Shown: positions 3,429 to 18,512 of the stretch, piece after piece
Layout: each line of letters begins with the position of its first letter
Numbering within the stretch: the first letter of the stretch is position 1
Origin: Escherichia phage PhaxI
Sequence record: JN673056
Direction: 5' to 3' (one strand)
DNA: 64,000 nt
The notes under the pieces: generated by a model
Told to the model about the DNA's origin: nothing
The model's input: the letters and a program-made list of their open reading frames with translations, nothing else
The model's database searches: none
Program-made: the position numbers and the translations under genes

Positions 3429-3896
3429 TTATAACAATCGTTTGGTTTTGGGTTTGCCCATGAGAGTGATATTGACATTTATTCCCGCTTTCTTCATGCG
3501 CTTGATCATGTCTTGCGTCCCAGTAGACGAACCATCCCATAATGCAATTCCAAAGACCCTCAAGATCTTTTTGCTTTGCCACGATAGAGCATTGTCAGCA
3601 TATCTTGGGTTGCGTTGATTCCCTGCGCTTTCCCATAATAATGTATGGTAATTCTTAGGAATTGCCATCGGGGTGATATGGACATAATTGATTTCACACC
3701 AATCACGGGATATCAGGTCGACACCCACCGCTTCGCCTTCTATAAAAGTTTCGATCTCGTGCGGATCTAACAGTTCATCCAGTTTGGTGAATATTTTGTC
3801 CCGTTCGGTTATAGAACGGGAACCCGTTATAAGAACGATATACTTCTTCATAGAACTCACAGCGCCCCAAGATTGCTGATGACGTACAGGCTGCAT
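3429..3896 (-). CDS. Rossmann-like protein with DprA/SLOG-like motifs
   Basis: 155-aa ORF; motifs ITGSRS and WDGSSTGT resemble DprA/SLOG-family nucleotide-binding folds; assignment by motif only. Confidence 0.35.
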   Translation of the reverse strand: MQPVRHQQSWGAVSSMKKYIVLITGSRSITERDKIFTKLDELLDPHEIETFIEGEAVGVDLISRDWCEINYVHITPMAIPKNYHTLLWESAGNQRNPRYADNALSWQSKKILRVFGIALWDGSSTGTQDMIKRMKKAGINVNITLMGKPKTKRLL

Positions 3897-4831: not shown

Positions 4832-5068
4832 TTATTTGAAGCGATCCGGAAGGGTGTCGTGAACCTCGGCGCTCAGCACCAGGAACTTGCCGTCTTTAGT
4901 AGGGAAGCAGTAATCTTTCTTGATATGAAGCATGTGTTCAGCTGTAGCTGCTACGCAGTCGTCAGTCACATCAGTCTTCTCACCGACCCACATGCTGGTC
5001 TTGGTGTTCAAAGTTCCCTGGAAGATTGTCCCCGTGAGGGGGCTTGCGCCGATCTTTTTGATCCTCAT
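4832..5068 (-). CDS. hypothetical small protein
   Basis: 78-aa ORF. Confidence 0.35.
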   Translation of the reverse strand: MRIKKIGASPLTGTIFQGTLNTKTSMWVGEKTDVTDDCVAATAEHMLHIKKDYCFPTKDGKFLVLSAEVHDTLPDRFK

Positions 5069-8804: not shown

Positions 8805-8811
8805 TATTTAG
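8805..8811 (-). promoter_or_regulatory. late-promoter-like motif CTAAATAC
   Basis: About 30 nt upstream of the scaffold gene ATG. Confidence 0.4.
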
Positions 8812-10036: not shown

Positions 10037-11719
10037 TTAAATACTATCGTCTGTTGAACCGGAGAATGGGATAGTCTCAGGTTTAAACTTCAACGGACTA
10101 ACATCTGAACCGCTATAATTGCCAGTTTCATCTGCTTGAACCTTCGGATAGAGACCTTTCTTCTTCTCTTCCGCGATCTTAGCCTGTTGTTCTTTAACTT
10201 CTTCGTCTGACATACGCAGAACATTCCGCATGACATAATCGATGGAGAATATAGAACCAACAAAAGGCTCAACAGTGTTCAGAGAAGCCAGGCGATCATT
10301 TAATATGGCGTTTTCTTGTTGCTCACGAATATAGCTATCAGAAGTGAATTCAAACTTAATAAACGGCTTGATTTTTTCATTCCAATCTTTTTCGTCAGTC
10401 ACGCCTTTCAAAATTAATTGGCGACGTAAAAACTCCATAAAGAAATGGGAGTAACGACGACGTAACCCAGCACAGAACTTGCTGAAACGCAGCTCTTCCT
10501 GTGTAATCTCCGCGAGGTTGGAACCCCCAATGTTAATAGATCCTTCCTCTTGGAGGCGGCTCTTAGGGATCATTAGAGCATCATAGAGTTTTTCACGGAA
10601 ATAGTTCACGTGATCCATTTCGCCCAATTGATTCCCACCCCCAACAGTCGCAATCTCTGTAGCATTCTGACCTTCGCGGCGCGGCAACCAATAATCCTCT
10701 GCAATACCCATAAGATGGGCATTACCTGTTATCTTACCAGTGGTGCGGTCATATGCGTTGCGGTTTTTGAATTTACCCATCATCATGGTCATGTATTCTT
10801 CAGCAGATTTCTTACCGAGAGTACCGACGTCAAGATAGAATGCGCGTTTCTCAGGGGCGCGAGTGATGGCATAAATTACTGTTGCGTCTTCAGTCGTAAC
10901 CAAGTTGTTCAACGGGCGGATTGCAGGATTTAAAAGCCCTGGGACAATACCGTTAGCCAATGGTTCTTCACCACTATCGATATAAACGATACTTTCGTCA
11001 TCAAACACGAGTTCTTGTTGTGAAGGTTGGAAGTTTTGAGAAGTACCTGATTGACCAGTGAATTGGTTCCGATTATAATTCGGATTGTAATAGTATTTCA
11101 GCGTTACAGATTCGATCGCTTCTATACCACCTTCACGCATTGCCTTTTCAACGATGTACACAGGACGAATACAACGAGAATCCAGCATGACCAATTTCTT
11201 GATCCCGCCCTTCTTATTCGTTGGGTCAACAATCACATGATACGCTTGTCGACCATCTACATACCATTTCCGAATCTTTTGATACGCCGTATTTTCAAAA
11301 TCCATCAAATGAATCACTTCTTTGAAACATTCGGTGATAGATTCTTTGACTGATTCAGAAATACCATCAACTTTGTCAAGATTGACTGTCACCGGAGTTT
11401 CGTCTTCCTCACATGTGACAACGTCATTAACAATGATGTCCACAGCTTTGCGGATTTCTGGCTGCTGGGCCATGGACTGATATTCTTCCACAACTGTTTT
11501 AACGCTGAGAAGTTCACTCTCAACGCCAACATAGTTGTAGGTGTTTGCACCGCCCTGAAGGATTATAGAACCGTCTTGAGCATCGTCCAGAGCAACAACT
11601 GTCGCCTTGGTGAGCAACAATTCATCTTGTTTTTGGGCTAACTTATCGGTGTCGACTTTGGCATTGACTAAACCGCCGCCACCAAACAAACCGAAGAACC
11701 CCATGCCGTATCCAGCCAT
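10037..11719 (-). CDS. portal protein (gp20-like)
   Basis: 560 aa; glycine-rich N-terminus; position between the tail tube and prohead genes; SD GAGGA. Confidence 0.65.
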   Translation of the reverse strand: MAGYGMGFFGLFGGGGLVNAKVDTDKLAQKQDELLLTKATVVALDDAQDGSIILQGGANTYNYVGVESELLSVKTVVEEYQSMAQQPEIRKAVDIIVNDVVTCEEDETPVTVNLDKVDGISESVKESITECFKEVIHLMDFENTAYQKIRKWYVDGRQAYHVIVDPTNKKGGIKKLVMLDSRCIRPVYIVEKAMREGGIEAIESVTLKYYYNPNYNRNQFTGQSGTSQNFQPSQQELVFDDESIVYIDSGEEPLANGIVPGLLNPAIRPLNNLVTTEDATVIYAITRAPEKRAFYLDVGTLGKKSAEEYMTMMMGKFKNRNAYDRTTGKITGNAHLMGIAEDYWLPRREGQNATEIATVGGGNQLGEMDHVNYFREKLYDALMIPKSRLQEEGSINIGGSNLAEITQEELRFSKFCAGLRRRYSHFFMEFLRRQLILKGVTDEKDWNEKIKPFIKFEFTSDSYIREQQENAILNDRLASLNTVEPFVGSIFSIDYVMRNVLRMSDEEVKEQQAKIAEEKKKGLYPKVQADETGNYSGSDVSPLKFKPETIPFSGSTDDSI

Positions 11720-11786
11720 GATCTAAGTCCTCAACGTTTTCTTGTAATTAGTGAGGGGGAATAACATTCCCCCAGCACCGAGGACA

Positions 11787-12320
11787 TTACAAAGACTTGT
11801 CAGAAACGGCTTGGAAATAACGCAAGTCGACAGTGAACTGTGTGTAAGAGTCCATTGCCGACATATCGAGTTCCAGTTGGCCGAGGTTTTGAGGCCAGCC
11901 GCCCTGTAAAGTCCATGTCTTAGTCACGTTGTCATTCGCGTCCAGAAGTTCCATGATGATATCACGGAAATAATCATCTGGATTCGCGCTGGCGCGGTTG
12001 TTTTCACTACCGTTGATGAATTGCTGCCACACTTCAAAAGCATTGTATGGAGCGTTGTTCACCACGTTAATGAACGTCACAGGAAGCGCTTCGAAACGAC
12101 GATCCCCTGGGAACGGAAGTTCACGTCCACCCCAGGGCACCAGAATTTCGCCCAGCTGACCTGTTGGGGTGTTGGTGGTTACAGCCAGCAAGGACACGTC
12201 ACGAATTGTGTCGGAACCAGCAACAAAAGAAGGAAAGTTTACAGTCACACGCCAGCGGTGTTGGCGTTGTACGCCGCCCCCTCGTGACATGGCTGCGCGA
12301 AACTCATTGACTGTCGCCAT
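11787..12320 (-). CDS. tail tube protein (gp19-like)
   Basis: 177 aa; directly downstream of the sheath gene region as in T4; SD GGAGAT. Confidence 0.6.
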   Translation of the reverse strand: MATVNEFRAAMSRGGGVQRQHRWRVTVNFPSFVAGSDTIRDVSLLAVTTNTPTGQLGEILVPWGGRELPFPGDRRFEALPVTFINVVNNAPYNAFEVWQQFINGSENNRASANPDDYFRDIIMELLDANDNVTKTWTLQGGWPQNLGQLELDMSAMDSYTQFTVDLRYFQAVSDKSL

Positions 12321-12350
12321 TTTTATATCTCCAAATAAGAGTACACAATT

Positions 12351-12809
12351 CTAATTAGTCGTCAATCTTTTAATCTTCATGGAAGAAAAATCAAATCCGT
12401 GGTCAACATTGCTTAAAACGGGTTCTATTTCACACAATTCCCAACGGGGATCTATGAGAGAAACAAGACCAATGTGTTCACCTGTGGATGTCAATTTTGC
12501 TGCAGTTTTACCCAGCATATGACTTCCATCATTACCGCCTTTATTCATGTTGTAACCCATCTCATAAGAATTATATTGAGCGATGAGTTGCTTCTCTAAT
12601 TCCCATTTATGGACTTCATCGGTCTGAGCAATTACAACGAAAGTAAATCCAGATGTTCCATACTTACGCATGGCATCATACAATTCACTTTGGACTCCAT
12701 GATGAAAAGCATTCGCAAAATGCTGATCATATCTTCGTTGTGGGTTATTGGTTACACCGATGTAGACCTTTCCATTAGTTATCGTTTCAATTTTGTATGC
12801 GTATATCAT
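12351..12809 (-). CDS. GIY-YIG homing endonuclease
   Basis: 152 aa; N-terminus IYAYKIETITNGKVYIGVTNNPQRRYDQH is a clear GIY-YIG catalytic motif. Confidence 0.8.
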   Translation of the reverse strand: MIYAYKIETITNGKVYIGVTNNPQRRYDQHFANAFHHGVQSELYDAMRKYGTSGFTFVVIAQTDEVHKWELEKQLIAQYNSYEMGYNMNKGGNDGSHMLGKTAAKLTSTGEHIGLVSLIDPRWELCEIEPVLSNVDHGFDFSSMKIKRLTTN

Positions 12810-12876
12810 TTCAAATTCACCTCTATTTTATTTAGTGTTGAACAATTTCGGGGTATTATGCTCTTGGAGGTGTTAT

Positions 12877-13665
12877 ATGATCGGTCATATCTACATGTTA
12901 ACCGTCGGTAAAAAGAAGTATATCGGACAAACTAGAAACGGCGTTGAGTATCGAGTAAATGAACATTTGGGTGAAGCAAGAAGAGGGAATAAAACTATCC
13001 TCTACAACTATATCCGAAAGTATGGAATTACCAGCCAAGAAATATTGCTAGAATGCCATGTCGATGACCTAAACTCTAACGAAATTGAACTCATAAAATT
13101 GCATAAGACTCATATCTCTGAAGGTGGGCTGAATATCAGCCGTGGCGGTCAGATAGACATATCTGGTATGGCCGCAGCATATGATATAGAAAGCAGGGAA
13201 TTCATCGGAATGAAACCAGTTAATGATGCTGGTTGGAATGTTTTGTTTGTGGCAAAACAATACGGTTTAGTACATAAAGAAGAAAGTAAAACAAAAATGT
13301 CCCAATCCCAAGCGGTCGTGTGGACAGAAGAAAAGAAAGAATTGCAATCCCGGCGAATTACAAAGGCATACGAGAATCCAAAATGTAAAGAAAATCTTCG
13401 TATCGCTATGAACAAAGTGCGTATGAATCCTGAATTTCAAGAGAAAATAAATCGATCTCTCGGGAGATGGTTTACACTTCTTTCACCAGCTGGTGAAGAA
13501 TATGAAATCAAGAATCTAAACAAATTTTGTCAAGAACAATGTTTGTGTATAGAATCTTTCAACATGGCATTAGCTGGAAGGATGCAGAATCCCATCCCTA
13601 AACCTTACAGGAAATCTTCATTGAAGAGAACAAATACCACAGGATGGCATATCAGTAGGAAATAA
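12877..13665 (+). CDS. GIY-YIG homing endonuclease with NUMOD-like DNA-binding repeats
   Basis: ATG at 12877 with SD GGAGG (track start 12793 is further upstream); GHIYMLTVGKKKYIGQTRNGVEYRVNEH motif; C-terminal lysine-rich helix-turn-helix-like repeats. Confidence 0.8.
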   Translation: MIGHIYMLTVGKKKYIGQTRNGVEYRVNEHLGEARRGNKTILYNYIRKYGITSQEILLECHVDDLNSNEIELIKLHKTHISEGGLNISRGGQIDISGMAAAYDIESREFIGMKPVNDAGWNVLFVAKQYGLVHKEESKTKMSQSQAVVWTEEKKELQSRRITKAYENPKCKENLRIAMNKVRMNPEFQEKINRSLGRWFTLLSPAGEEYEIKNLNKFCQEQCLCIESFNMALAGRMQNPIPKPYRKSSLKRTNTTGWHISRK

Positions 13666-13690
13666 AAACCCCGCCGAAGCGGGGTTGTTG
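13661..13690. terminator. bidirectional hairpin terminator between convergent genes
   Basis: CCCCGC-CGAA-GCGGGG hairpin flanked by A-run and T-rich stretch. Confidence 0.5.
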
Positions 13691-13692
13691 TC

Positions 13693-15588
13693 TTAGGATG
13701 CAGCAACGATGCCGCCGCCTGATTCGATCTCGGAGAATTCCATATCTGGTCGAACTGCAGCAAAATCCAAATATACCCAATTAATGCTGTACTCAGGCTT
13801 CAACCAAATGCCTGCAACCATGGTGTTGGCTGCGATAACATCAGCAGTGTTGTTATCTTCGTCACACTTGACTTTACCATCGTAGATCGCACCCATATTT
13901 GCCAGTTGGCGAATATAAGGACGAACAGCGTTGCTGAACAGGCTGCGAGTGAACGCATCATTGTTCTCACCAAGGTAATATTTGGCGATTGCAGCGATGT
14001 TCTGTTCTGCCATAATGAACAAGCCACGAACATTGATACGATCGAAAGCAGACGGACGAGTCAGGCCAGTTTTGTCACCATACAACACGATACCTTCATT
14101 GGAGAAGGTTACGATGCTGTTAATCTGGTTGCGGTACAACACGGCACGTTCATCGGAAGACGCAGACCACGCCATTCGATTGTAGTTGTTGTATTTGCCA
14201 CGGTTGTGGAACGCAGGAGATTTGTAGATACCCGCGATTTCAATGCTTCGCGCCCAAACACCTGCGGTGCCACCACAAGCCGGAATCCAACGCATTTTGT
14301 CGTTGTACTTGTCGTACACATATGCCCAGTTATCATCCATGAAGAAATAAGAAGAGTCGCGAACAAGGCTTTCACGCCAAGCAACGACATCATCCATTTC
14401 ACGACCACGGTTGCCAACAACCGTATCACGGAGCGGGGATACGAAAGATACCGTATCTTTTCGCTCAGTAGATAAGTCGATCAATGCTTGTTGCTCAATC
14501 AGTTCTTCACAGTACGCAAATACTGGCTTCGCATCATATGCTTCAGCATTGTTCAAGACTTGGATAGCTGCCACGCGGTTGATGTTATAATCGTCTACGC
14601 CGCCTTCTAATTCAACAACACCTGCGGACAGAGCGGTAGCGAAGGTGTACACCCAATTTGATGTATCATTGATGACATCTTTGAAGTACGCATTCGCGCC
14701 ATCGGACTTTTTGGAACCCTGTGTGTTCTGCATGAGTTCGTATTTTTCGATAATAGAACCAGATGCGCCAACAGTGGTAATCACGGCGGTTGCAGTCAGC
14801 CCCTTATCATCTGGAACAATAGCAGTAACTGTCTGGGGACCAATAGCTTTATGGGTCACGATGACAGTGTTGGACTTCACGACAACAGAAGAATAAACAC
14901 TTGTCAGGGAAGTTAGTGCTGTACCGATTTTGGTTGCCAAATCGGCTGGAGTATCAGTATCCAGATATGCGATATCTTCACCTGCCACACTGATGGTGCC
15001 AGCAGCAGTAGCCGTACCAGAAACGGAGATACGGTCAACCTGACCGACCGCGCCAGCAGAGTCGGTAATGCGACCAACTTTGTCTACGACAACTACATGG
15101 AATTCACCAGACTGAGGTGCGTATGCAAAGTTATTACGGAATTCCCAAGTTGAGAATCCAGCAGCATCACAAACATTGATAGCAATATCATTACCCAGGG
15201 AACCTGGATAACGACCAGTCCAAGTGATGGACGCCGAAGGACTTGCTGTTTCAAAATCCAGTTTGTTTTTGATCGCAATCGCTGTCTGACCTTTGGTAAC
15301 AGAGTTCTTGGCCAGAGGACCAACAACACGGGTCACCCATGCCATAGAGCTGTAAGACAAAAAGTCCGCGATTACGAGAAAATCGGTCGCAGTACTGTCG
15401 TTGGGTTTGAAGAATTTCTTCACCAAACCTGTCTCACCACCAGTCACCAGCACTGGAAGTTCAACTTCACCCCATTGAAATTTGCCGACGGTCGCGCCCT
15501 GAACAACAACGGACGGGGACGTCTGAAGCGTGGCATCACGCTCAGTCCACTGAACGGACGGCGCAACGCTGAAGCTTTGAGTTGCCAT
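13693..15588 (-). CDS. tail sheath protein (gp18-like)
   Basis: about 631 aa from ATG at 15588 with SD AAGGAA (track start 15621 is TTG); size and position match T4 gp18; CTAAATAT motif about 45 nt upstream. Confidence 0.7.
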   Translation of the reverse strand: MATQSFSVAPSVQWTERDATLQTSPSVVVQGATVGKFQWGEVELPVLVTGGETGLVKKFFKPNDSTATDFLVIADFLSYSSMAWVTRVVGPLAKNSVTKGQTAIAIKNKLDFETASPSASITWTGRYPGSLGNDIAINVCDAAGFSTWEFRNNFAYAPQSGEFHVVVVDKVGRITDSAGAVGQVDRISVSGTATAAGTISVAGEDIAYLDTDTPADLATKIGTALTSLTSVYSSVVVKSNTVIVTHKAIGPQTVTAIVPDDKGLTATAVITTVGASGSIIEKYELMQNTQGSKKSDGANAYFKDVINDTSNWVYTFATALSAGVVELEGGVDDYNINRVAAIQVLNNAEAYDAKPVFAYCEELIEQQALIDLSTERKDTVSFVSPLRDTVVGNRGREMDDVVAWRESLVRDSSYFFMDDNWAYVYDKYNDKMRWIPACGGTAGVWARSIEIAGIYKSPAFHNRGKYNNYNRMAWSASSDERAVLYRNQINSIVTFSNEGIVLYGDKTGLTRPSAFDRINVRGLFIMAEQNIAAIAKYYLGENNDAFTRSLFSNAVRPYIRQLANMGAIYDGKVKCDEDNNTADVIAANTMVAGIWLKPEYSINWVYLDFAAVRPDMEFSEIESGGGIVAAS

Positions 15589-15630
15589 AATATCATTCCT
15601 TCTCGGTAGAGTTTCGCTCAATTTGAAAGA

Positions 15631-15637
15631 TATTTAG
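15631..15637 (-). promoter_or_regulatory. late-promoter-like motif CTAAATAT
   Basis: About 45 nt upstream of the tail sheath ATG. Confidence 0.4.
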
Positions 15638-15640
15638 TGA

Positions 15641-17851
15641 TCAATTCTTAAACCACTCATCCATGGTCATCCCTGACATTTCGTTGAAAACTTGAATACC
15701 CCCGAAACCAGGCAAATGCTCAGTTTCGGATGGGGTGTCTCCAACGACTAAACCGCCAAATGGGAATACCTGCTGGGATTCAGTTGAAGACATTCGGTTT
15801 CTCATGTCCTGAGAAATACTTGTAGATGTCAAGTCACTGAACCATTCTTGTTTTACCGCCCATGAATATAAGACCAACGGCATGACACAGTCATCGTGAC
15901 AACCGTCATCGGCTTCATACCGAGCGCCTTTGAACACAAATGTACTGAGTTCATCTATCGTGTCCTGGTCTTCTATCACCAACATTTCTTTCTCAATGAG
16001 CGCTTTCAGGTTAGCACAACCGATAGATCGGACTTTTCTGTTGGTATTGATACCAGGTTCCGGTTTACGTCCACCAATCCGTTTCCCCGTCCCTTTGTTA
16101 TCTGTTGATGTGAATATGATTTCTGGATATTCTATCTCTTGATAAAGAATTGTAATAACCTGACCGCCGACGTCGTTGTTTGTTTCAACAAGGACAGGAC
16201 ATTCCCCGTATTCGGTGCACATATCAGCTATCGTGTATGCATACATCATAGGAGGTATCGTATTATTCCTGTACTTGGCTGCTATGACATGCGGATATTC
16301 AGTTATATCCAGAATTGTTAAGACGGAATAATCTCCTTCCACCCCCTTCCCAGTGTCCGCAATCCCAAAGTAGAGACGTTGTGGGTCGTATTCCTTATAA
16401 ATCTTGGTGAATTCATTAGGTTCCCGATACAACTTGGACGTCATTTTATCTAAGCATTTGGCCGGAATCAATGAACCCACGGAACCACGGAACTTAATGC
16501 CAAATTCTTGATCGAAACGAGCATCCCCCAGACGGGCACGTTGTTTGGTTTCCCAATCTGGATCTTTGGTATATGCCGGAACCTTATACCATGGGACTTC
16601 AGTTAGGTGGAAGTCGTTGTATGGTGGATGGCGTGGATCTGCTTTGGTGACAATATCATAGAACAACCCTCGCTGGCCTTTCGGAGTACTTGTCAAAATA
16701 CAGCGTGATGTATCGGCAGATGCAATGGCTGGGAAAGTTGATTCCCAAAATTCAAAGTCGTTTTCGATAAACGCGACTTCGTCAACATACAGGAGCGATC
16801 GACGACCACGGATGGAGTTCCGAAGACTCGTGGCATAAGCGTATATCTTAGAACCATTCTCAAACTCTATCAGGGTAGAACCAAACTTCTCACAACCCTG
16901 CTGAAGGAAGAATGGAAGGTCTTGGTATGCCTTTCTGATACGGTCAAGAATTTCTATCGCTTGTTTCTCTTTGTTTGCCAGTACTGCGATTTCCTTATCA
17001 GAATGGAACATCGCGTACCAAAGAAGAAACGCCGCCACCACGGTCGTGTTATGACTGAGAAAGCCATTCGTGTAATAACGTTGATCACTAGATTTGACCT
17101 GCAGATCGTACATATGGTGATATTCACCAGTCTGCCAAATCTCACGGATTTCTTCTGGACCTTCGGTCGTCATGATGTATGACCCAGCATTCAGGTCTTT
17201 GGCAAATATCTCCTTCATGTCCGGAGTGAAGAACATATGTTCATCGGCCACGTTAATTCGCCTTCCGGTAACGGTGACAATAACGAATTCCGCATATTTC
17301 TTCGTCTTATGCGCTGCGATAACCGGAACCCAGCCACTATCGGATTGTACAAAGTAACGTTTGCCGAAGCGGCTGTCCACGAACTTGTCATGGTTGCCAA
17401 TGGTATTCAGCGGCACAGCGTGGTTGACGTCCTCGAAGCGGCTGTGAAGCTCCCCTATAGTCAGGAGCAACTCCTCTTGGCTGAGAGTATCGTAAACTGT
17501 GACAAGCGTGTCGCCTTTTACACATTTTCCGGACTGACGAGCCTGGACGACCGCATTAAATCGATAGTCCTGAAAGTCGTGGAACAACTGCTTCTGATAA
17601 TCATGCATATCGAAAAGGATAAAGCCCTTATCGATCGTGGTTATCTTGTAATAGTTGGCGGCGAAGTAGTGTGCATCCATAGAACATTCAACGAATTCGT
17701 CTTCTTGTTCATCTGTCAGCATTAACTCGACTCGAGGAGCACGCACAGAAAGTTTGCGCATGAACGTTTGGTCCATACGCAATTTTACATCGTCTATTTT
17801 GAACCCCGTTTTAATTGGGGCATATTCTATATCACGCTTCTGATACGCCAT
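15641..17851 (-). CDS. gp17: terminase large subunit (gp17-like) containing a mini-intein
   Basis: 736 aa; Walker A QARQSGK is interrupted and resumes with TTVVAAF; overlaps the small terminase gene at its 5' end; SD GAAGGAAG. Confidence 0.85.
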   Translation of the reverse strand: MAYQKRDIEYAPIKTGFKIDDVKLRMDQTFMRKLSVRAPRVELMLTDEQEDEFVECSMDAHYFAANYYKITTIDKGFILFDMHDYQKQLFHDFQDYRFNAVVQARQSGKCVKGDTLVTVYDTLSQEELLLTIGELHSRFEDVNHAVPLNTIGNHDKFVDSRFGKRYFVQSDSGWVPVIAAHKTKKYAEFVIVTVTGRRINVADEHMFFTPDMKEIFAKDLNAGSYIMTTEGPEEIREIWQTGEYHHMYDLQVKSSDQRYYTNGFLSHNTTVVAAFLLWYAMFHSDKEIAVLANKEKQAIEILDRIRKAYQDLPFFLQQGCEKFGSTLIEFENGSKIYAYATSLRNSIRGRRSLLYVDEVAFIENDFEFWESTFPAIASADTSRCILTSTPKGQRGLFYDIVTKADPRHPPYNDFHLTEVPWYKVPAYTKDPDWETKQRARLGDARFDQEFGIKFRGSVGSLIPAKCLDKMTSKLYREPNEFTKIYKEYDPQRLYFGIADTGKGVEGDYSVLTILDITEYPHVIAAKYRNNTIPPMMYAYTIADMCTEYGECPVLVETNNDVGGQVITILYQEIEYPEIIFTSTDNKGTGKRIGGRKPEPGINTNRKVRSIGCANLKALIEKEMLVIEDQDTIDELSTFVFKGARYEADDGCHDDCVMPLVLYSWAVKQEWFSDLTSTSISQDMRNRMSSTESQQVFPFGGLVVGDTPSETEHLPGFGGIQVFNEMSGMTMDEWFKN
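17048..17524 (-). mobile_element. mini-intein (159 aa) inserted in the terminase P-loop
   Basis: Begins CVKGDTLV (intein block A) directly after GK of the Walker A motif; ends YDLQVKSSDQRYYTNGFLSHN followed by extein T; excision would restore QARQSGKTT. Confidence 0.75.
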
Positions 17852-18512
17852 CGTCTTCTTCCTTCACATCAACTGTTTCACCATCAATGATTTCATCTTC
17901 TGGTTGTTGTGCGGCCTTTGCTTGTGCTCTTTCTTCAGCGCGACGGCGGGCATCTTCAATCGTCTTCAATAAATCGCGAGAAGATCGCGCCTTTTTCCCA
18001 ACCGATACTGTTGTTGTTCCGTCTGGTGAAGTTGTAACATCCACTGTCGTGTCATCAACAGGTGGTTCTTTATCACCTGTTACTGCCTTGATGGTTTTCT
18101 GGTTTTCCATCAAGTCTTTATTCAGACCGCGCATGAGTTCACCCAATTCACGGAAAACAGAAAATGCTCGCGGAGCTTCTGTGGATGCAGCCAATTTAGC
18201 GGCTTGTCCCATCATGAACATTGTGGCTTCTTGCATAGCATATGTTGTGTCGCGTATCCGTTTGTAATCCGTTGTAGCATCAGTGTCCGCAAACTCAGGT
18301 ACTTTGGATTCCTTGGAAGCAATATCCTCCAATGAAGGCGGTTCAGGAATCGGCTGATACCCTTCCGGACGTTCACCAAACCATTCACCTGTATTTTCAT
18401 CGAAGTCAATACCTGGACGAGGGGCGACAGCCTCCATCGCCTCCTTCCCGACTTCGTCTCGGGCAGTCACTGCATCAAGCGTGGCGAGTAACCTTTCTGA
18501 CATATTGCTCAT
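17832..18512 (-). CDS. terminase small subunit (gp16-like)
   Basis: 226 aa from ATG at 18512 with SD GGAGGA; acidic; immediately upstream of and overlapping the large terminase gene. Confidence 0.5.
   Translation of the reverse strand: MSNMSERLLATLDAVTARDEVGKEAMEAVAPRPGIDFDENTGEWFGERPEGYQPIPEPPSLEDIASKESKVPEFADTDATTDYKRIRDTTYAMQEATMFMMGQAAKLAASTEAPRAFSVFRELGELMRGLNKDLMENQKTIKAVTGDKEPPVDDTTVDVTTSPDGTTTVSVGKKARSSRDLLKTIEDARRRAEERAQAKAAQQPEDEIIDGETVDVKEEDDGVSEA

Follow-up and report, generated by a model that had tools for sequence, protein, structure and literature searches.

The junction between the tail tube and tail sheath genes of Escherichia phage PhaxI probably holds two free-standing GIY-YIG homing endonuclease genes (HEGs) of different ages: HEG2, which appears to be a recently mobile element transcribed against the tail genes, and HEG1, which appears to be an old, truncated resident of the same site. 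We give this reading a probability of about 0.8. The window analyzed here is the whole 64,000-nucleotide (nt) stretch of sequence record JN673056, a genome segment of a Kuttervirus (Ackermannviridae, ViI-like). The 5-kb stretch around the locus is 97.1% identical to Salmonella phage Det7 (99.1% in the tube-to-sheath part), and the minus-strand gene order is terminase gp17, tail sheath gp18, tail tube gp19, and then portal gp20. A preliminary description, made from the letters of the window, had placed a divergent GIY-YIG pair with a 67-bp spacer between tube and sheath. The coordinates, orientation, and spacer are exact according to the open reading frame (ORF) table and the sequence, and the location agrees with the PHROG and Pfam matches of the flanking core genes. 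The features are as follows.

12351-12809, minus strand: HEG1, GIY-YIG endonuclease, 152 amino acids (aa), ATG start (PF01541, phrog_5123, TIGR01453)
12342-12359, minus strand: ACTAATTAGAATTGTGTA, 18 nt around the HEG1 stop, apparently left over from the 3' end of a full-length Menlow-type HEG ('QLIRIV*')
12810-12876: divergent spacer, exactly 67 bp, with a CTAAATA motif and the Shine-Dalgarno sequences of both genes
12877-13665, plus strand: HEG2, GIY-YIG homing endonuclease, 262 aa, ATG at 12877 (phrog_314)
13667-13686: GC-rich hairpin AACCCCGCCGAAGCGGGGTT (terminator scan, both strands)
13693-14215, minus strand: sheath 3' end that probably arrived with HEG2, a putative co-conversion tract (mismatches of the window versus Cba120 and SJ2)
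13792-13840, minus strand: candidate HEG2 recognition/immunity region within the sheath gene (in the near-isogenic pairs SJ2/ECML-4, Mansal/Cba120, and cp18/KN2-1, the shortest HEG2-linked tract reaches to about 148 nt from the sheath stop)
11787-12320, minus strand: tail tube gp19, T4 gp19-like, downstream core gene (phrog_45, E=6e-57; Pfam Phage_T4_gp19)
13693-15588, minus strand: tail sheath gp18, T4 gp18-like, upstream core gene (phrog_23, E=3e-113; Pfam sheath domains)
15641-17851, minus strand: terminase gp17

The HEG1 stop is separated from the tube start codon by 30 bp. The sheath gene starts with the ATG at 15588, a 1896-nt coding sequence being annotated in Det7 and others, and the tail tube is annotated in the Det7, Cba120, and Vi01 records.

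Polymorphism of the tube-sheath junction

We compared 45 loci (the window and 44 fetched loci), of which 44 included both flanking genes and could be classified. The junction was occupied by (i) HEG1 alone (Cba120, Vi01, and KN2-1); (ii) HEG2 with HEG1 (the window, Det7, SJ2, bering, and cp18); (iii) a HEG2-like gene alone (Mansal, Se-J, CRW-SP2, and the metagenomic locus L021); (iv) a third GIY-YIG gene, HEG3, joined to HEG1 by an ATGA overlap (ECML-4, S118, and phiMAM1); (v) a gene of the HEG3 or Menlow type alone (barely, SKML-39, XF4, and Menlow); or (vi) a Hef-like nuclease gene in reverse orientation, with or without a 120-aa ORF (Mutine and LIMEstone1). The Hef-like nuclease, which contains DUF7487 and DUF559/Vsr-like domains, is F-LimVIII in LIMEstone1 (PMC3296691). 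LIMEstone1 and XF4 belong to one species and carry different occupants.

Decayed remnants and near-empty sites were also found. In LIMEstone1 (L008, positions 823-1112), a 38-aa ORF (MITNSH...TTGWQLIRIV*) fuses the N and C termini of a Menlow-type HEG, and another locus (L034) retains Hef fragments of 75 and 16 aa. Two junctions of 77 to 78 nt (L035 and L042, just upstream of position 5001) keep the hairpin and a 19-nt relic of a HEG 3' end, and the junction of Vibrio phage VAP7 is reduced to 10 nt. At the next junction of VAP7, on the portal side of the tube gene, a 484-aa annotated homing endonuclease lies in reverse orientation (L010, positions 718-2172).

At least four nuclease lineages thus occupy the tube-sheath junction in different relatives. 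The preliminary description had proposed repeated invasion of this site, to be refuted by uniform double occupancy without empty sites; instead, presence/absence polymorphism was seen. Repeated invasion and replacement are well supported by the comparison, since at least four lineages, decayed remnants, and near-empty sites occur at one junction.

Distribution and decoupled genealogy of HEG2

A search found 273 related records, and most Kuttervirus genomes (e.g., Cba120 and Vi01) carry HEG1 only. HEG2 is far rarer: a tblastn search gave 83 matches, with roughly 25 records at ≥58% aa identity (9 at ≥99%, 1 at 90 to 95%, 7 at 80 to 90%, 3 at 60 to 80%, and about five at 58%), and the remaining matches (about 58 of the 83) were to HEG3-type or unrelated GIY-YIG genes at about 26 to 31% identity. 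The HEG2 family comprises nine clusters in a database of 5.8 billion proteins. Every HEG2 homolog found, including those on metagenomic contigs, lies at the tube-sheath junction in the same orientation. The ratio of nonsynonymous to synonymous divergence (dN/dS) of HEG2 is 0.09 to 0.24, indicating that the protein is maintained.

HEG2 and its flanks have discordant histories, and the discordance runs both ways. Between the window and Mansal, HEG2 is 59% identical and its synonymous divergence (dS) is saturated, versus a dS of 0.07 in the tube gene and 0.25 in the sheath gene. Between the window and Klebsiella phage cp18, HEG2 is 90% identical (dS of 0.63) and the flanks have dS values of 1.26 to 1.56, a difference from which transfer between genera is evident. 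The HEG2 proteins of the window and SJ2 are identical, with one nucleotide difference in the gene (position 13050), and the sheath dS of this pair is 0.36. HEG2 thus has the appearance of a recently mobile element.

Co-conversion tracts and a candidate target

The sheath gene of the window has 1 mismatch to that of Cba120 (HEG1 only) in its first 1373 nt (15588-14216) and 60 in its last 520 nt (14215-13696). The comparison with SJ2 gives the reverse pattern, with 1 mismatch over 12785-13941 and dense mismatches beyond 14245 and in the tube gene. Given these opposite patterns, the window appears to consist of a Cba120-type backbone with an SJ2-type insert of about 1.4 kb (from about 12785/12810 to about 14215-14244), of which the cassette (i.e., the spacer and HEG2) makes up 855 bp. 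The insert ends at the HEG1 start codon in the window; the Det7 insert of the same type spans the whole of HEG1.

The sheath sequence next to HEG2 follows the HEG2 allele. A 285-nt segment (13666-13950) is ≥99% identical only in the nine records with an identical HEG2 allele, 93% identical in the seven records with the 84% allele, and ≤90% identical in all others. In near-isogenic pairs the differences are likewise concentrated on one side, with sharp boundaries. SJ2 (HEG2) and ECML-4 (HEG3) differ almost solely by their cassettes and the sheath 3' end, whose final 148 nt contain 31 of their 42 sheath mismatches. The last 163 nt hold 38 of the 77 mismatches between Mansal and Cba120, the last 200 nt hold 34 of the 73 between cp18 and KN2-1, and the last 91 nt hold 21 of the 32 between Vi01 and ECML-4. 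The cassette-specific 3' end of the sheath gene thus measures about 150 nt in the case of HEG2 and about 90 nt in that of HEG3, and the HEG2-linked stretch varies from ~150 to 520 nt. We take this cassette-linked end to mark the interval between insertion and cleavage sites, which would be obligatorily co-converted.

This interval points to a candidate target at 13792-13840. Sheath codons 13817-13828 encode N-T-M-V in the window and N-Q-M-V (AAC-CAR-ATG-GT) in HEG2-free genomes. Each of the seven distinct HEG2 haplotypes has N-T-M-V or N-Q-L-V here, and none has QM; several codons are used, and the surrounding protein segment is invariant. Among the HEG2-free loci with a readable codon pair, 23 of 29 have QM. 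The six non-QM loci (among them L007, L024, L029, L019, and L025) carry Hef-like cassettes or belong to XF4 and S118, and because of such alleles in a few HEG2-free genomes, we propose the region as the HEG2 target and immunity site only as a hypothesis. A search for a single nucleotide column separating all genomes with HEG2 from all those without it found none; only the QM versus TM/QL pair, with its exceptions, came close.

Beyond the cassette-linked end, the whole sheath gene (13693-15588), compared with three loci (L001, L002, and L012), is a mosaic of Cba120-type and SJ2/ECML-4-type haplotype families, with block boundaries at roughly gene positions 160, 790, 950, and 1420.

Domain content of the two nucleases

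Both genes encode GIY-YIG proteins, as the preliminary description had stated. HEG1 matches Pfam PF01541 (E=1.9e-11; 44.5 bits, cutoff of 22.6), phrog_5123 over its full length (E=2e-93), and TIGR01453 (E=7e-13). Aligned with I-TevI (1MK0/1LN0; catalytic residues Y6, Y17, R27, H31, E75, and N90), it has Y5, Y16, R26, H30, and N87 at catalytic-residue positions. The 1LN0 alignment sets I-TevI E75 opposite L70, one column from E71, and E71 falls in the conserved Glu column by the family alignment only. HEG2 was assigned through phrog_314 (E=4.7e-29) and its family profile, which matches the I-TevI catalytic domain 1MK0 over residues 1 to 90 (E=1.3e-6). The profile was needed, as a PDB sequence search with HEG2 alone as the query gave no match. 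All nine HEG2 family members match PF01541 (best E=2.8e-12), and Y6, Y15, R26, H30, E69, and N86 are invariant across the family in two alignments. TIGR01453 is the best NCBIfam match of both genes, at 49 and 31 bits, under its cutoff of 56.

The two genes had been described as unrelated, which does not hold: their products are 28% identical over 113 aa (BLASTP, E=3e-9), in an alignment spanning the catalytic domain and the linker. In a joint alignment with HEGs of other phages, the catalytic domain and a linker motif (G-x-x-A-A...T-G-E-x-I-G...D-P-R-W) are common to all, and the full-length HEGs have in addition NUMOD3-like helices and a C-terminal module (L-x-S-P-x-G-E...N-L-x-x-F-C...N-T-T-G-W). 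Pfam NUMOD3 is found in four of the nine HEG2 family members, and the C-terminal module of HEG2 aligns with the C termini of HEG3 and Menlow-type HEGs. HEG2 is therefore predicted to be a complete modular enzyme with a catalytic domain, a linker, NUMOD3-like helices, and a C-terminal DNA-binding module.

The AlphaFold2 (AF2) model of HEG2 has a mean predicted local distance difference test (pLDDT) score of 61, with about 51 to 86 for residues 1 to 80 and 79 to 92 for the C-terminal module, and its moderate confidence is attributable to the small family. The N terminus of the model resembles I-TevI 1LN0 (template modeling [TM] score of 0.66, root mean square deviation [rmsd] of 2.6 Å, and probability of 1.0, with E-values of 0.06 to 0.3) and UvrC N-terminal domains. 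The remainder resembles the DNA-binding region of I-HmuI, with high probabilities and weak E-values.

No GIY-YIG paralogs other than HEG1 and HEG2 were found in the window. An Rfam scan of 11000-18500 for a group I intron or another structured RNA gave only sub-threshold matches, which came from the terminator hairpin, and no Rfam intron family appeared in this interval even at E≤1, so that this possibility was rejected. Both genes are thus free-standing, and the tube and sheath genes on either side of them are complete.

Origin and maintenance of HEG1

Klebsiella phage Menlow has, at the corresponding site and in the same orientation, a 230-aa HEG whose N-terminal 132 aa match HEG1 at 57% identity. 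HEG1 terminates where the DNA-binding module of its relatives starts, so that the C-terminal module is missing. The 18-nt relic ACTAATTAGAATTGTGTA ends both the Menlow gene and the LIMEstone1 remnant ORF and remains in the HEG-less L035 junction; in HEG1 it is read in a different frame, whereby TAG (12351-12353) becomes the HEG1 stop. Because of the N-terminal match to Menlow and the 3' relic in another frame, HEG1 is best explained as an internal-deletion derivative of a ~230-aa HEG from which the DNA-binding module was removed.

In contrast to that of HEG2, the genealogy of HEG1 follows its flanks. Compared with its Taipeivirus ortholog, HEG1 has a dS of 1.49 (tube, 1.44; sheath, 1.42) and a dN/dS of 0.08 (0.055 for the tail alone). 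The protein is intact and 95 to 100% identical in the Kuttervirus loci examined, 81 to 82% identical in Taipeivirus, and 60% identical in Serratia Miltonvirus. At ≥80% identity, tblastn found it in 196 records; the full-coverage matches at this level were single ungapped pieces, with no disrupted copy among the matches listed. These comparisons suggest that HEG1 has been inherited vertically, under purifying selection, since before the Kuttervirus/Taipeivirus/Miltonvirus split. The preliminary description had missed that HEG1 is a truncated, long-resident copy and not a second recent invader.

Since HEG1 is kept under purifying selection, we infer that it still does something. It is very unlikely to be an inert, decaying relic hitchhiking beside the tube gene. 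The loss of the DNA-binding module, the frameshifted final codons, the weak Shine-Dalgarno sequence of the Cba120 copy with no CTAAATA upstream, and the smaller HEG remnants in LIMEstone1 and L035 would fit such a relic, but a protein that is still 81% identical at a saturating dS of about 1.5, with a dN/dS of 0.08 and no disrupted copy among the full-coverage matches listed, would not.

A possible, though doubtful, explanation is domestication, in which the catalytic domain and linker were retained for a phage function after the sequence-specific DNA-binding module was lost. T4 endonuclease II is a GIY-YIG-only enzyme that degrades foreign or unmodified DNA. By analogy, HEG1 might nick or degrade such DNA, exclude coinfecting relatives, or guard the junction against other HEGs. 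A dN/dS as low as this at a dS equal to those of tube and sheath, intactness across genera, and conserved catalytic residues beside a deleted helix-turn-helix-type module all agree with domestication, and precedents for it among HEGs are known (PMC8096241). On the other hand, HEG1 is dispensable, as it is missing from Mansal, Se-J, barely, Mutine, and Menlow; a location among late structural genes is ill suited to early breakdown of host DNA; and a functioning HEG of low specificity, or one mobilized in trans by its neighbor, predicts equal conservation.

Expression signals and the shared terminator

The CTAAATA-type motif noted in the preliminary description upstream of one gene lies at 12829-12835 on the minus strand, 19 nt before the HEG1 ATG. 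It is followed by a HEG1 Shine-Dalgarno sequence (GAGGTG, 12820-12825, minus strand), and HEG2 has its own (GGAGGTG, 12866-12872, plus strand). The window contains 17 copies of CTAAATA versus 7.6 expected, a number reached in none of 100 shuffles. Fourteen of the 17 are located about 20 to 90 nt before a same-strand ATG ORF of ≥45 aa (12 of them within 19 to 37 nt), and one lies upstream of the sheath ATG (15631-15637). The motif resembles T4's TATAAATA, and the LIMEstone1 record marks the same TAAATA hexamers as putative late promoters; CTAAATA thus looks like a late-promoter element of this phage group. A literature search for the CTAAATA string returned nothing relevant. Further copies include those at 8805, 10023, 19882, 27168, 32391, 35608, 39444, 48186, and 48665, and the motif is often followed by (t/c)C(c/t)C.

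Every reverse-oriented cassette examined, of HEG2 or Hef-like type, carries ACTAAATA and a Shine-Dalgarno sequence pointing toward the tube gene or HEG1. Cba120, which lacks HEG2, has a different 28-bp sequence in place of the spacer and no CTAAATA between the sheath terminator and HEG1. A cassette inserted against the operon would therefore carry a signal that restores late transcription of the tube gene and, here, of HEG1. Same-orientation HEGs hold CTAAATA in their last codons, about 30 nt before the tube start (XF4 [L019], ~3680-3696; 2050H1 [L018], ~3455-3471), and a one-off variant, CTAATTA, is present in the last codons of Kuttervirus HEG1 (12351-12359 in the window) and of the Menlow HEG. 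A late promoter of the tube gene may thus be embedded in HEG coding sequence.

A conserved candidate HEG2 promoter seen by eye in the window, Mansal, and CRW-SP2 (TTTAGT-N17/18-TAnnnT) is weak, and we do not claim it. Hairpins that mask ribosome-binding sites are known from T4 I-TevI or mobE. The two Shine-Dalgarno sequences of the spacer contain a 6-nt inverted repeat (CACCTC/GAGGTG, 12818-12823 and 12867-12872), but this is trivial, because complementarity is automatic for divergent genes with strong Shine-Dalgarno sequences; the fold energies of a hairpin occluding the ribosome-binding site in read-through transcripts were not unusual (z-scores of -0.7 to -1.4), and this candidate was rejected.

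The hairpin at 13667-13686 is terminator-like on both strands: it is the sheath terminator, with a T-run on the minus strand, and directly follows HEG2. It is the cassette's shared boundary and is conserved in Cba120, Mansal, CRW-SP2, Mutine, and LIMEstone1. In the window and at the equivalent position of L001 to L020, two hairpin types occur: AACCCCGCTTCGGCGGGGTT accompanies HEG1-only, HEG2, and Hef-like cassettes, and CATGCCCTCTTCGGAGGGCATT accompanies HEG3-type cassettes and, beyond these loci, the L035 relic junction. As the hairpin type covaries with the cassette, the terminator appears to behave as part of the exchanged unit.

Homing or passive transfer of HEG2

HEG2 combines a separate DNA-binding region, polymorphism of its site, and a decoupled genealogy with putative co-conversion tracts, as is characteristic of a HEG. 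We propose that, in a mixed infection, HEG2 would cut the allele of a related phage that lacks HEG2, and that the cut would most likely fall within the last ~100 to 150 nt of the sheath gene. Repair by recombination, with the HEG2-bearing genome as template, would then copy the 855-bp cassette, the terminator, and the variable sheath 3' stretch. Substitutions in the co-converted stretch would protect the carrier genome, and the outward CTAAATA element and strong ribosome-binding site of the cassette would restore late expression of the downstream HEG1 and tube genes. In Ackermannviridae, the DNA that such an enzyme would meet carries modified thymidine analogs.

Several observations weigh against the reading of HEG2 as a recently homing gene. 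By itself, HEG2 scores 17.2 bits against Pfam GIY-YIG, under the threshold of 22.6, and its model is of moderate confidence (pLDDT of 61), with fold matches at E>0.001. A sigma-70 consensus scan of the spacer found no HEG2 promoter. The late-promoter role of CTAAATA is deduced from position and enrichment, and the 2011 CBA120 paper stated the late consensus of ViI-like phages to be unidentified (PMC3184105). The association of TM/QL versus QM with HEG2 has HEG2-free exceptions and is confounded by tight linkage. The evidence for mobility is comparative throughout, and the genomes compared are not independent samples. Finally, the mosaic sheath gene implies frequent recombination in Kuttervirus beyond the HEG-linked tract.

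This mosaic of SJ2/ECML-4-type and Cba120-type backbones, together with the sub-threshold Pfam score and the negative promoter scan, would suit an alternative in which HEG2 has lost homing activity, or never had it, and is an accessory gene moved passively by general homologous recombination, its patchiness reflecting loss and shuffling. We consider this improbable. Passive movement does not readily account for six invariant catalytic positions at a dN/dS of 0.09 to 0.24, for homologs found at one junction and in one orientation only, for one-sided divergent tracts that end about 148 to 200 nt into the sheath gene in at least four independent backbone pairs, or for the apparent transfer between genera (dS of 0.63 versus 1.3 to 1.6).

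A broader view, which we offer as speculation, treats the tube-sheath junction of Ackermannviridae as an ancient arena where alleles of at least four nuclease lineages replace each other. Each would bring its own variant of the final ~90 to 150 nt of sheath sequence, serving as a built-in immunity tract, the reverse-oriented ones would also bring a portable late promoter, and HEG1 would be a domesticated nuclease with a role beneficial to the phage (competitor exclusion or site protection) and not a selfish element.

Significance and a neighboring intein

Free-standing HEGs located between conserved genes are a familiar feature of T4-like phages. The Det7 GenBank record labels both ORFs 'GIY-YIG homing endonuclease', and the 152-aa gene is called a segD homolog (orf195 of Cba120) or a GIY-YIG endonuclease in the CBA120 and PhiSH19 papers (PMC3184105 and PMC3220722, respectively). 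The kind of element is thus well known, both ORFs were already annotated, and the novelty is low. The locus nevertheless amounts to a natural experiment, with roughly 330 public genomes, at least seven allelic states of one junction, and near-isogenic pairs distinguished only by their cassettes and by about 150 nt of adjoining sequence. Comparison of such pairs predicts the region cut by HEG2 (sheath N-Q-M-V, 13792-13840) and the immunity substitutions. Allelic competition, putative immunity tracts with sharp boundaries, a prediction of the target, and a conserved GIY-YIG protein that has only the catalytic domain and has long been preserved by selection without its DNA-binding domain make a modest, testable addition. 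Kuttervirus phages are used in cocktails for biocontrol of Salmonella and E. coli O157. Active HEGs, if confirmed, would bias allele survival in mixed preparations, linked tail sheath sequence included.

The neighboring large-terminase gene (15641-17851) holds a 159-aa mini-intein (17048-17524, minus strand; Cys110 to Asn268, then Thr), which sits in the Walker A motif (ARQSGK/intein/TTV) and has a sub-threshold match to Pfam Intein_splicing (29.6 bits). Terminase genes are of similar length in the relatives examined (2202 to 2271 nt; 2211 nt in Kuttervirus records), so the intein is probably general among them. A terminase intein has already been noted for Klebsiella phage Magnus (PMC6763660).

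Comparison with known systems

The Seg proteins of T4 (SegA to SegG) are free-standing GIY-YIG homing endonucleases of T-even phages (PMC2988022). Like them, HEG2 has a GIY-YIG domain followed by DNA-binding modules, is intergenic between conserved genes and patchy among close relatives, and seems to spread with co-conversion of flanking markers, with its target expected in the neighboring conserved gene and not at the insertion point. The genes described here are not orthologous to any T4 Seg gene, and in the libraries they match best to PHROG families of Ackermannviridae-type HEGs. In addition, transcription of HEG2 runs opposite to that of the late operon around it, its mobility is deduced from sequence comparison, and these phages are without MotA/AsiA-type middle control.

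The catalytic domain aligns with that of I-TevI (1MK0 and 1LN0) over residues 1 to 90, with Tyr/Tyr/Arg/His/Glu/Asn conserved, and the order of catalytic domain, flexible linker, and C-terminal DNA-binding module is the same, in line with TIGR01453 as the best NCBIfam match. The genes described here differ from I-TevI in that they are not intron borne and have no zinc finger, and the C-terminal module of HEG2 is closer to the DNA-binding region of I-HmuI than to any I-TevI match. I-HmuI and I-HmuII of SPO1 and SP82 are competing intron endonucleases (Goodrich-Blair and Shub 1996, as cited in PMC3296691). As in that system, alternative endonuclease genes occupy one site in close relatives with distinct flanking alleles (HEG2 of SJ2 versus HEG3 of ECML-4), although here the genes are free-standing and competition is suggested by the allele distribution.

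The pairing of a truncated endonuclease gene (HEG1) with an intact free-standing HEG (HEG2) recalls the defunct I-TevIII of T4, which is mobilized in trans by the neighboring mobE (PMC2790892). Because the HEG2 tract of Det7 spans all of HEG1, HEG1 alleles can probably be dragged along by HEG2. In contrast to I-TevIII, however, HEG1 has its catalytic domain intact and evolves under purifying selection, and the tract of the window stops at the HEG1 start codon.

A parallel in layout is F-LimVIII of Dickeya phage LIMEstone1 (PMC3296691), together with its Mutine homolog. This protein of about 590 aa belongs to another nuclease superfamily (DUF7487 and DUF559/Vsr-like), yet its gene shares with HEG2 the junction, the reverse orientation, the sheath-side hairpin, and the outward CTAAATA.

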